A stretch of DNA of 64,000 nucleotides from Escherichia coli (GCF_044324785.1 NZ_CP172127.1), one strand, 5' to 3'. Counted from the stretch's first letter, positions 17,218-43,210 are shown. Translations and numbers: made by a program. Notes: generated by a model from the letters alone, not told the origin.

Positions 17218-17361
17218 GTGAAAAAGTTTCGATGGGTCGTTCTGGTTGTCGTGGTGTTGGCTTGCTTGCTGCTTTGGGCGCAGGTATTCAACATGATGTG
17301 CGATCAGGATGTACAATTTTTCAGCGGAATTTGTGCCATTAACCAGTTTATCCCGTGGTGA
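17218..17361 (+). CDS. mgrB: PhoQ-inhibiting small membrane protein MgrB (47 aa, GTG start)
   Basis: Hand translation from GTG: (M)[46 protein letters not shown]; ACGGAG Shine-Dalgarno 7 nt upstream; missed by the track (below 60 aa, non-ATG). Confidence 0.85.
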
Positions 17362-17435
17362 TATCATTTTTTCAGCACTAGATTTTCTTCCTCTCCAGCA
17401 GTGGTAGAATAGCGCCTCTACTCAGAGGTGGTGAA

Positions 17436-17723
17436 ATGAACGAAGTTGTAAATTCAGGCGTGATGAACATTGCGTCTTTGGTTGTATCGGTGGTGGTTCT
17501 TCTTATCGGGCTCATCTTGTGGTTTTTTATCAATCGTGCCAGTTCACGGACTAACGAACAGATTGAACTGCTTGAGGCGTTGCTGGATCAGCAAAAACGT
17601 CAAAATGCACTGTTACGTCGTTTGTGCGAAGCAAACGAACCAGAGAAAGCAGATAAAAAGACCGTTGAGAGTCAAAAATCGGTTGAAGACGAAGATATTA
17701 TTCGTCTGGTCGCCGAACGATAA
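17436..17723 (+). CDS. yebO: Small membrane protein YebO
   Basis: 95-aa ORF MNEVVNSGVMNIASLVVSVVVLLIGLILWFFINRASSRTNEQIELLEALLDQQKRQNALLRRL... Confidence 0.8.
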   Translation: MNEVVNSGVMNIASLVVSVVVLLIGLILWFFINRASSRTNEQIELLEALLDQQKRQNALLRRLCEANEPEKADKKTVESQKSVEDEDIIRLVAER

Positions 17724-18392
17724 TCCTTCCTCAATCTTGAGTAACCCCGTCGTTGAAGGGTTACTCAATTCATCCTGATTATACGCACTGCCATGGTGCA
17801 ACTGCTTCAAATTAAAACTCTGGTCTGACTTCAAATAATTATCATATTATTTATTTGCGTAACGGGATATCAGAAAAAGATATTTAGCCCATTAATTTAT
17901 TAGGATGTTTACATCGGATTTGTGATTAAGTGTGGTATTATTTATTAGCGAAACGTTTCTCTCTTGATTTTTTTGCGCATTCATCAATTTTTCTTATTTT
18001 AAATTTACAATACCTTTGGCGATTGACTTCTCTTTGGGGTGATTGATAGCCGTTAACTGACTGTTTTATGAGAAAAAGTGATATAACTTTTTATTCATTG
18101 CATAGCAGAAAATGTGATATTGCACGCACTATGTAATAACTTCTCCCATTGGCCTGGAACAACTGAACTTATTGAACTATGTTAGAAAATACGTCAGTTT
18201 AAGTATCTGCCTGAACTGGCAAGGTTAAGCACAATGATATATCGGCGCGTATTCCGTTGCATAAGTGTGCAAAAAAAGTGGAAGACGTATCGAGATTTGT
18301 GCGTCTGATCGAGACATGTTTAAAAATGGCTTGCCATAATTAACGTTGTATGTGATAACAGATTTCGGGTTAAACGAGGTACAGTTCTGTTT

Positions 18393-18536
18393 ATGTGTGG
18401 CATTTTCAGTAAAGAAGTCCTGAGTAAACACGTTGACGTTGAATACCGCTTCTCTGCCGAGCCTTATATTGGTGCCTCATGCAGTAATGTGTCAGTTTTA
18501 TCTATGTTATGCCTGCGGGCGAAGAAAACAATCTAA
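18393..18536 (+). CDS. yobF: Small protein YobF (47 aa), co-transcribed with cspC
   Basis: Hand translation [47 protein letters not shown]; stop 12 nt before the cspC start. Confidence 0.8.
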
Positions 18537-18548
18537 GGAATTTTTCAA

Positions 18549-18758
18549 ATGGCAAAGATTAAAGGTCAGGTTAAGTGGTTCAACGAGTCTAAAGGTTTTG
18601 GCTTCATTACTCCGGCTGATGGCAGCAAAGACGTGTTCGTACACTTCTCTGCTATCCAGGGTAATGGTTTCAAAACTCTGGCTGAAGGTCAGAACGTTGA
18701 GTTCGAAATTCAGGACGGTCAGAAAGGTCCGGCAGCTGTTAACGTAACAGCTATCTGA
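18549..18758 (+). CDS. cspC: Cold-shock-family protein CspC
   Basis: 69-aa [72 protein letters not shown] with RNP1/RNP2 motifs. Confidence 0.95.
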
Positions 18759-18803
18759 TCGAATCCACTGATCTGAAGTGTGAATACGCTTCAATCTCGC
18801 TAT

Positions 18804-18830
18804 AAAGCCTCGTCGAATGCGAGGCTTTTT
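18804..18830 (+). terminator. Intrinsic terminator after cspC
   Basis: aaagcctcg-tcgaatg-cgaggctttttt hairpin plus T-run. Confidence 0.8.
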
Positions 18831-18923
18831 ACTTTGCTTTCTCTTCGCTCCAGTCGTTCGGATATTTGCCCGCCGCGTGATTCGCGTTACACTTGCGGCC
18901 TTTAGTATCCTGCCGGAGTTGTC

Positions 18924-41349: not shown

Positions 41350-42960
41350 TCAGTTGTCGCCTTTGAATACGGTTCCCGCAGGGAGCACTGGTGTTTTTTC
41401 CAGGGCTTCAACCGGTGTCTGCGGGAGATAATGTTCAACTTGATGAGCCGGAATGTCGGCGTAATCCTGTTTCAGCCAGCGAATAAATCCGCCGACTTTC
41501 ACCAGTAAAATGACGAGGAAGGGAAGGGCTGTGAGCACGACGGTGGTTTTCATCGTTTCCAGCGAAGCACCGGTAAACAAGATGGAAAGCGGGATCAGAG
41601 TGATCACCACGCACCAGAAAAGACGCAGCCCACGGTCAGGATCTTCACCTTCCTGGAGATTACGCGTACTGGTCGCCGCCATGGTGTAGGCCACCGCATC
41701 CATATGCGAGGCAAGGAAAATAATCATCACGCCCAGGTATGCGGCGAGGAACAATTTACCGGCTGGCAACGACATCAGAACTTGCTGCACAGCTGTTTCA
41801 CCGCCCAGTGTTTCCAGCACCTGTGGGACGTTGATTACGCCATTGATAAACTGATGAATGGCATAGCTTTCCATTACGCCGAAGAAGAACCAGCAACCGA
41901 CGGTGCTGCCGAGGATCAGTCCCCAGATAACTTCTTTAATCTTATGACCGCGGGAAACGCGGGTGACAAACATTGCTACGCCAGGCGTGTATGAGATCCA
42001 CCACAGCCAGTAGAAAACGGTCCAGTTGCGGGTAAATGAACCATCGCCAAGCGGATCGGTGAATAAGCTCATTTGCAGGAAGTTTTGCGTGGTCAGGCCG
42101 ATGGCATTGATGATGCTGTTGGTAATAAATTCGGTTGGACCGACAATCAGCACCAGTAATGGCAGCAGGAACGCGCCCCAGCCAACCATTTTGCTCAGAC
42201 GTTGCAAACCGTTGTTGATACCAATCCATGAGCTTAGGCAAAAAATGCCGCCGGAAAGCAGGATCACAAATGCCTGCACGGTGAAGTTATCGGGTAAACC
42301 GGTCAGTGCGGAAAGTCCACGAGTAAAGGTTGCTGCGGTGACAACAAGGGAAATAGTCAGTGCGCCGACAGTGGCGATCAGGAACATCAAATCAACCAGT
42401 TTTCCCCATGGGCCTTGCGGGCGAACGCCGGTAATCGCGGCAATAATGCCGGAAAGACTCAGACCTTTGTTTTTCCGCACATGAAAGTGATAAGCCATGA
42501 TTAATGAGGCCAGCGTATAAGTTGCCCAGGCGCTGATGCCCCAGTGGAAGAAGGAGTAAGGGACGCTAAATTCGAGTGCCTGTTGTGAACGCGGTGCGAT
42601 ATTTAATCCAGGCGTTTGATAATAATAGGCCCATTCAGCAACCCCCCAATAAAGCGTAGAAGAACCTAAACCGGCACAAATAAACATAAACAGCCAGGAG
42701 AGCGTGCTGTATTCCGGTTTTCCTTCGCCAAGACGAATATTGCCGTATTTACTGGTGGCTAAATAAATCACCAGTCCCATTGCCAGCAAAACCAATACCT
42801 GTACGGCGGAACCTAACGTACGCGTAACAAAAGTGTATATTGCGTTGGCCGCGTCGGCCGATTGTTGTGGGAAAAGGCTTAATGCAGCTGCGATGAAAAG
42901 AATGGCCACCAGGCTGATGCTTATCAGCGGCACATCTTTTTTCTTAACATTGCTCATCAT
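41350..42960 (-). CDS. yeaV: BCCT-family transporter YeaV (probable carnitine/betaine-type carrier)
   Basis: 536-aa polytopic ORF; N-terminal region resembles CaiT/BetT-type BCCT carriers from the first Met, so the full ORF is kept; exact start uncertain. Confidence 0.8.
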
Positions 42961-43210
42961 GAGTCATCTCCTGGGCATAAAAGCCCGTCTCTGGCTTTTG
43001 CCAGTTGTAATTATTTGCAGGGTAATGAGTTGTATGTTGTGTTTAACAAATTGATTATTTGCATGTTACATAAATTAAACAATTAAGAATACGGAAAGCC
43101 ATAAAACACGAAACGGAAACAATAAAAGGTGAAATGACGCAGGTTATTAACTGCAAAGAACGAATAAAAAAACCGCGTCAGTGACGCGGTTCAAATAAAC
43201 TGGTTTGACC

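Follow-up and report, generated by a model that had tools for sequence, protein, structure and literature searches.

The 669-bp yebO-yobF gap of Escherichia coli as a probable transcriptional control region of the yobF-cspC operon

The 669-bp gap between yebO and yobF (17724-18392), located in an E. coli DNA stretch of 64,000 nucleotides (hereafter, the window), very probably serves to control transcription of the yobF-cspC operon and, on its left side, includes the 3' terminus of the mgrB-yebO transcript. The region is an ordinary one, and its main features are largely known. The anatomy of the gap, its conservation pattern and the loss of a short open reading frame (ORF) in Escherichia albertii come from the present analysis, while start sites, binding of CRP, H-NS and RpoD, and targeting by small RNAs are taken from the literature. 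The outcome is mostly negative: a candidate 22-codon ORF does not belong in the list of small proteins, and the gap does not represent a new RNA element. On the positive side, four islands conserved at fixed distances were mapped in 78 Enterobacteriaceae, with a look-alike of the RbsR operator in one of them and a palindrome common to two others. The look-alike, recognized by its sequence, is the only lead with some novelty, possible but unproven.

CspC is a global RNA chaperone, and its locus has been repeatedly hit by adaptive mutations, which makes a map of the control region useful. The yobF-cspC locus was mutated in 12 of 24 aging-colony isolates (PMC13162491), and Salmonella mutants at the cspC locus gain growth on succinate (PMC10965054). 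Insertions were also found in natural E. coli: in the ST131 strain MB1341 (L087 696-811), IS1 is located at the place where yobF begins in other strains, and in FDAARGOS_1279 (hit H5), IS1 interrupts the stretch from yebO to cspC. A parallel exists in aging colonies in the laboratory, where IS1 and IS5 insertions at yobF-cspC were selected (PMC13162491).

Table 1. Features of the yebO-yobF gap and adjacent genes (window positions, except in the last row)
Feature	Position	Strand	Remarks
mgrB	17218-17361	+	
yebO	17436-17723	+	
Hairpin probably ending the mgrB-yebO transcript	17737-17768	+	11-bp stem TTGAGTAACCC/GGGTTACTCAA, 10-nt loop
AT-rich spacer, fast-evolving	17769-17946		No conserved element outside Escherichia
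Island A	17947-18009		Column conservation 0.7-0.9
Candidate 22-aa ORF MRKSDITFYSLHSRKCDIARTM	18068-18136	+	Judged a chance ORF
Island B	18090-18119		TGCATAACTATGCA-type palindrome in most genera, then an A-rich run
CRP binding site TGTGAtattgcACGCA	18113-18128		Centre 18120.5, -70.5 from the distal start
Island C	18154-18192		Distal promoter
Distal yobF promoter (island C)	18155-18191	+	Mapped start and hexamers
Leader of the distal transcript, 202 nt	18191-18392	+	
Island D	18258-18271		Palindrome TGCATAAGTGTGCA, consensus CGCATAACTGTGCA; -134 from the yobF ATG
Conserved TGTGCG-N-GATCGAG element	18298-18313		Centre 18305.5, -61.5 from the start 18367
Proximal (main) yobF promoter	18320-18369	+	Mapped starts and invariant hexamers
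5'UTR GGGTYAAACGAGGTACAGTTCTGTTT, 26 nt	18367-18392	+	Shine-Dalgarno GAGG at 18376-18379
yobF	18393-18536	+	In operon with cspC, probably served by the gap
cspC	18549-18758	+	In operon with yobF
cspC terminator	18804-18828		3' of cspC
rlmA	from 18924	+	
MBL-fold ORF in other genera (examples)	L004 968-1969; L062 968-1975		Coordinates of the loci L004 and L062

General Characteristics of the Gap

The window belongs to the E. coli chromosome and represents the reverse strand relative to K-12 MG1655 (NC_000913.3, ~1,862,000-1,926,000), with which it is collinear at ~98% identity; the K-12 coordinate equals 1,925,984 - p, where p is the window position. In K-12 the gap has the identical length of 669 bp, with 12 substitutions and no indel. 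The earlier note on this DNA had described the gap as the largest in the window and strongly AT-rich, and both statements are borne out. Among the intervals of the collinear K-12 region that are annotated without any feature, it ranks first, the runner-up being the 435-bp interval mipA-yeaG. With 35.4% GC, compared with 49.5% in the window as a whole, it belongs to the lowest 0.8% of 669-bp windows. A segment of ~225 bp at 42832-43057, present in the window and absent from K-12 MG1655, with the blast break at approximately the K-12 dmlA-yeaV intergenic region, leaves this rank unchanged. The expectation that such DNA represents a regulated leader bound by nucleoid proteins is justified in part: the gap is a promoter region with published H-NS binding, but the leader occupies only its last 30% (18191-18392).

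The genes mgrB and yebO form one transcript (PMC5861431), which is probably ended by a hairpin located downstream of yebO. The hairpin folds with -18.4 kcal/mol (z = -3.25); its tail, AUUCAUCC, is not a U-run, and it was missed by the terminator scan because a T-run is absent. The stem is preserved in E. albertii, where substitutions at the base are matched on the two sides (CTGAGTA...TACTCAG). The gene yebO also has its own mapped start (old coordinate 1906591, 32 reads, 19-nt UTR) and, therefore, is not expressed solely by read-through from mgrB; a promoter-like site TTAACC-17-TATCAT was found upstream of this start, in the mgrB-yebO spacer (17339-17367).

The hairpin is followed by the fast-evolving spacer, which among the 80 loci compared can be aligned to E. 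albertii only (85%), with a column conservation of 0.14-0.6. Windows of 200 bp across 17800-18099 contain 28-30% GC, and the yobF/yebO spacer has been flagged as H-NS-bound (PMC3946193), a combination typical for AT-rich DNA bound by H-NS.

Transcription Starts and Promoters of yobF-cspC

Two starts of yobF are present in the list of Kim 2012 (PMC3415461, supplementary file 2), the coordinates of which are old and 1976 lower than the current ones: 1905641, corresponding to window position 18367 (249 reads, 26-nt UTR), and NC_000913.2 1905817, corresponding to 18191 (107 reads, UTR 202). Starts at 1907615-1907618, i.e., 18366-18369 in the window, were obtained independently by tagRNA-seq (PMC7075262). 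Start mapping had been proposed earlier as a check of a long leader, and the published maps answer it on both sides, with a start at 18191 giving the 202-nt leader and the main start at 18367 giving only 26 nt. Such lists cover few growth conditions, and a promoter repressed in those would be missed.

The proximal promoter comprises an A-tract TTAAAAA (18320-18326), the -35 hexamer TTGCCA (18331-18336), a 17-bp spacer and an extended -10 element TGtGATAAC (18351-18359), with the start at 18366-18369. It is a TG-extended TTGCCA-17-GATAAC promoter of the sigma-70 type, with starts 7-10 nt downstream in two data sets, and TTGCCA-17-GATAAC is also the sigma-70 promoter of yobF reported by Shimada 2014 (PMC3946193). 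The hexamer TTGCCA is present in all 78 aligned sequences, and TGTGATAAC in 76 of them. A weaker promoter-like site, GAGACA-18-CATAAT (18311-18340), overlaps it. A gSELEX peak of RpoN holoenzyme at ~18356, near the proximal promoter, is known from the literature; a sigma-54 promoter here or at island C was rejected by eye, since the GG/GC spacing does not fit. Further upstream, the listed variants of the TGTGCG-N-GATCGAG element retain TGTGCG and GATCGA. The element resembles a CRP half-site and may be functional.

The distal promoter is represented by the hexamers TGGAAC (18155-18160) and TATGTT (18178-18183), separated by 17 bp. Island C, in which it lies, was singled out from conservation first, and the published start was matched afterwards; in Kim 2012 (PMC3415461), the 50-nt sequence upstream of the distal start ends with ...TATGTTAGAAAATA, and the upstream sequence of the 18191 start is given as ...CTGGAACAACTGAACTTATTGAACTATGTTAGAAAATA. 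The form TGGACG-17-TATGGT is found in most genera, while E. coli has TGGAAC-17-TATGTT; TGGACG or TGGAAC occurs in 58/78 sequences, and TATGGT, TATGTT or TAAGGT in 68/78. More than one peak of RpoD holoenzyme was reported in the '670 bp spacer' by Shimada 2014 (PMC3946193), which does not give their positions. A half-site of DeoR, TGTTAGAA, was considered for island C, and no convincing match was obtained.

The CRP site upstream of the distal promoter was established in vitro by Footprint-seq (PMC12871828, Table 1), where it is presented as agTGCGTgcaataTCACAttt with a Kd of 8.7 nM, centred at K-12 1907867 and assigned to the gene yobF; yobF was also recovered as a CRP target by genomic SELEX (gSELEX; PMC3105977). 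With a mapped start, recognizable hexamers and the CRP site on the correct helical face, the distal promoter is a weak sigma-70 promoter, and CRP bound at -70.5, a class-I position, would activate it. The full CRP site is specific to Escherichia, and the distal promoter is conserved more widely.

Conserved Islands across Enterobacteriaceae

The comparative set included 80 loci of Enterobacteriaceae anchored on yobF, 78 sequences of which were aligned with MAFFT. The gene order mgrB-yebO-(gap)-yobF-cspC is conserved across the loci. The 430 bp upstream of the core are always gene-free and AT-rich, with a mean of 38% GC against 50% for the loci. In blastn comparisons, an identity of 88-95% starts sharply at ~18295 in 79 of the 80 loci, and the yebO coding region shows ~70%. 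In the 78-sequence alignment, four islands (A-D) at fixed distances from yobF are set in fast-evolving AT-rich DNA.

Islands B and D have a common palindrome of the type TGCATA-NN-T(A/G)TGCA, the two copies being ~166-170 bp apart in many genera. The island D palindrome (at most 2 mismatches) was found at -131 to -134 in 47 of the 80 loci, and matches of the D-like motif at ~-300, corresponding to island B, in many loci. Motifs of NtrC, ArgR, Fis, DnaA, MarA and KdgR gave no convincing match with islands B and D. Islands A, B and D are presumably bound by factors.

Island A opens with the palindrome AGCGAAACGTTTCTCT (17947-17962), which is similar to operators of the LacI family, being closest to that of RbsR, and closes with a TGCATAAC half-site. 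Of its 16 positions, 15 agree with the rbsD operator TCAGCGAAACGTTTCGCTGA, the presence of which just upstream of rbsD was confirmed in K-12; the chance expectation of so good a match in 669 bp is ~1.5e-5, a value computed after the motif had been seen. In 48/80 loci, the 16-mer (at most 2 mismatches) precedes the yobF start codon by ~390-470 bp. A working RbsR operator at this place, through which ribose would control yobF-cspC or an unannotated transcript from island A, either by itself or by looping with the palindromes of islands B and D, seems unlikely. If the operator did work, it would provide a direct link from RbsR to the RNA chaperone CspC and a mechanism for the fast growth on succinate common to the Salmonella rbsR and cspC mutants. 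Such a link is only possible, because the Salmonella study credits the RbsR effect to RpoS, the levels of which are unchanged in the cspC mutant (PMC10965054).

Another reading of island A is an unannotated small RNA or condition-specific transcript, silent without ribose, with a putative start at ~17947, the extended -10-like motif TGgTATTAT just upstream of the palindrome (17933-17941) and an RbsR-type operator overlapping the start, as at rbsD. The likeness of the palindrome to the rbsD operator and its conserved position are consistent with such a transcript, as are the AT-rich -10-like hexamers that most genera have 5-8 bp before the palindrome, the several RpoD holoenzyme peaks in the spacer (PMC3946193) and the succinate phenotype of both Salmonella mutants (PMC10965054). 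However, the list of Kim 2012, obtained under limited growth conditions, contains no start at island A and none within 240 bp of the palindrome, no terminator-like structure follows, the -10 motif was assigned by eye and is below the scan threshold, and RpoS accounts for the RbsR effect in the Salmonella study. The existence of this transcript is accordingly doubtful.

Leaders and RNA Structure

The earlier note considered a long structured leader plausible, and in the broadest form of this view, a single structured leader or riboregulator of yobF-cspC would be transcribed from most of the gap. A 202-nt leader does exist, and its length is kept at 196-217 nt across genera, with the islands at fixed spacing. 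In Salmonella 4/74, the yobF-cspC start is at 1893683, and the 5'UTR is described as containing Tn5 insertions placed 172-181 nt downstream of this start (PMC10965054), so that it is at least 181 nt long; hence the long leader is used in Salmonella too. On the other hand, this leader begins at 18191 rather than near 17724, and the stronger start yields a leader of 26 nt. The conserved part of the long leader coincides with DNA elements of the proximal promoter.

The covariation analysis of the leader across Enterobacteriaceae suggested in the earlier note speaks against a conserved fold. In RNAalifold with 24 genera, none of the 19 predicted pairs was compensatory, and the covariation term was -0.11 kcal/mol; the variable part of 63-80 nt is poorly aligned, so that a hairpin confined to one lineage may exist there. 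The folding z-scores are weak, with -1.4 for E. coli and -0.8 on average over 78 sequences, 9% of which are below -2. The Rfam scan (E <= 1) revealed no family inside the gap; its sole match, cspA (RF01766), covers 18373-18833 with 139.7 bits (gathering score 78), mostly from coding sequence. With this evidence, the 202-nt leader stands, a conserved structure in it is not supported, and transcription of most of the gap as a riboregulator is very unlikely. The preferred reading remains a control region with two mapped promoters.

The 26-nt UTR is almost invariant across the aligned sequences. It is here that small RNAs have been reported to act: OxyS pairs near the Shine-Dalgarno sequence of yobF (PMC10965054) and CyaR targets yobF mRNA (PMC5861431).

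Strong conservation extends into yobF. In codons 1-13 (18393-18431), third positions have a conservation of 0.985 against 0.995 and 0.989 for the first and second positions (81 sequences); for third codon positions of cspC, the value falls to 0.90, and the C-termini of YobF are variable, being truncated in several genera. This suggests nucleotide-level constraint, RNA or DNA, on the 5' end of yobF. Weak 5' ends within yobF, assigned to cspC in Kim 2012 (PMC3415461), are located at 18420-18437.

The Candidate 22-Codon ORF

The ORF proposed in the earlier note is present, and its translation is exactly as claimed. Instead of a weak ribosome-binding site, the 20 nt before the ATG (AGCCGTTAACTGACTGTTTT) contain no purine-rich motif and no Shine-Dalgarno sequence 5-12 nt before the start. 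Nor does the ORF correspond to a tiny annotated gene: the gap of K-12 MG1655 is free of features, and in 30 RefSeq genomes of E. coli, sampled across the identity range, nothing is annotated under it. Both variants of the peptide are absent from a collection of 15 billion proteins, which is weak evidence, as gene callers skip ORFs so short.

A real small-protein gene specific to E. coli is nevertheless what the variation within the species could indicate, since all 8 of the diverse E. coli compared retain the ORF intact, the changes being a conservative R14K and one synonymous substitution, and its stretch varies less than the flanks. However, the ORF overlaps island B and the footprinted CRP site, and these DNA sites, rather than coding, account for the local conservation. 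ORFs of this size occur in the gap at chance frequency: five ATG ORFs of at least 22 codons were found against 4.6 +/- 1.8 expected from 1000 dinucleotide-preserving shuffles, and the longest ORF of the gap has 30 codons, while the longest ORF in shuffles has a mean of 50. The only starts listed between yobF and yebO by Kim 2012, under limited growth conditions, are 18191 and 18367, both downstream of the ORF.

Outside E. coli the frame is not preserved, which is one of the two outcomes named in the earlier note as refuting the proposal. In the sister species E. albertii, ATA stands where E. coli has the ATG, and a 1-nt deletion alters the peptide after residue 7; neither Citrobacter nor Salmonella has an equivalent start codon or frame. 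In the 78-sequence alignment, no column at the ORF has a conserved start opening an ORF of stable length. Taken together, the 22-codon ORF is most likely a chance reading frame, its translation in E. coli is unlikely, and a dedicated small-protein gene is highly improbable.

Two further candidates were rejected. The gene yobI, considered as an annotated gene of this gap, is placed beside ruvA in PMC3946193, and the K-12 gap is featureless. Among other conserved short ORFs in the gap, the sole stable column is GTG at 18299 (13-18 codons); this frame is part of the invariant DNA of the promoter, and variation in it shows no preference for third codon positions.

Gene Content between the Neighbouring Genes in Other Genera

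An ORF of 325-335 aa, similar to MBL-fold hydrolases, is located directly after yebO in 33 of the 80 loci (among L004-L083). It is absent from Escherichia, Salmonella, Citrobacter and Klebsiella, and some Buttiauxella have only fragments of it (39-92 aa), so that loss does happen. Loci with this gene still have ~530 bp of separate gene-free AT-rich DNA with the same islands before yobF; since the islands lie between the MBL-fold gene and yobF, the E. coli gap corresponds to that region and not to the gene. That the gap is a decayed remnant of the hydrolase gene lost in Escherichia is extremely improbable, and the candidate was rejected, as tblastn against the E. coli gap yielded only a 7-residue match (E = 8.6).

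On the other side of the operon, most genera have an ORF of 581 aa between cspC and rlmA (L008 3086-4831), while E. coli and E. albertii are without this ORF, cspC being immediately followed by rlmA. By eye, its product resembles PBP3/FtsI-type penicillin-binding proteins and the PBP3 paralog of Salmonella.

Proposed Organization of the Control Region

From left to right, the gap is organized as follows. The hairpin probably ends the mgrB-yebO transcript and is followed by ~180 bp of fast-evolving AT-rich DNA, reportedly bound by H-NS. Four short islands, conserved across Enterobacteriaceae at fixed distances from yobF, come next. Island A carries the LacI/RbsR-type palindrome as a candidate operator; island B has a palindrome in most genera and, in E. 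coli, a site of high affinity for CRP. Island C is a weak sigma-70 promoter producing the 202-nt leader from 18191, with CRP at -70.5 in a presumably activating class-I position, and island D provides a second palindrome of the island-B type. The invariant strong promoter (A-tract, TTGCCA, 17 bp, TGtGATAAC) then gives the main transcript at 18366-18369, the 26-nt leader of which is the published place of action of OxyS and CyaR. The 22-codon ORF is most likely a chance frame running across island B and the CRP site.

Comparison with Known Systems

The palindrome of island A is most similar to the RbsR operator of rbsDACBK (LacI/GalR family): AGCGAAACGTTTCTCT matches the core AGCGAAACGTTTCGCT in 15 of 16 positions, and the central CGAAACGTTT is kept across genera. 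In contrast to the rbsDACBK operator, this candidate is separated from the two mapped starts downstream by 244 bp and 420 bp, an abnormal position for a repressor, and its right half-site decays to GTTTT in many genera.

Class I CRP promoters, of which malT is an example, have the CRP site near -70.5. The distal yobF promoter is of the same build, since the weak TGGAAC/TATGTT pair is combined with a nanomolar CRP site 70.5 bp upstream. It differs from promoters of the malT type in that the complete site is confined to Escherichia and the dependence on CRP is only predicted.

Similarity to the cspA thermoregulator (RF01766) is limited to cspC and the 176 nt upstream of it, the match beginning a few nt from the proximal start. 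The match is almost wholly outside the gap, and where cspA has its leader, cspC has the yobF ORF.

In size and in its intergenic setting near known small-protein genes, the 22-codon ORF is similar to the validated small proteins YobF and MgrB. Unlike them, it has no ribosome-binding site, promoter, conservation beyond the species or annotation.

The closest known system is the yobF-cspC promoter region itself, with the promoters yobFp1, yobFp2 and cspCp8 (RegulonDB/EcoCyc, cited in PMC13162491). This is the same locus, and there is no difference in kind; these three promoters may correspond to the starts 18367 and 18191 and to the 5' ends of cspC inside yobF (18420-18437). To the known locus are added the conservation map across genera and the position of the footprinted site of CRP relative to the distal start (-70.5).
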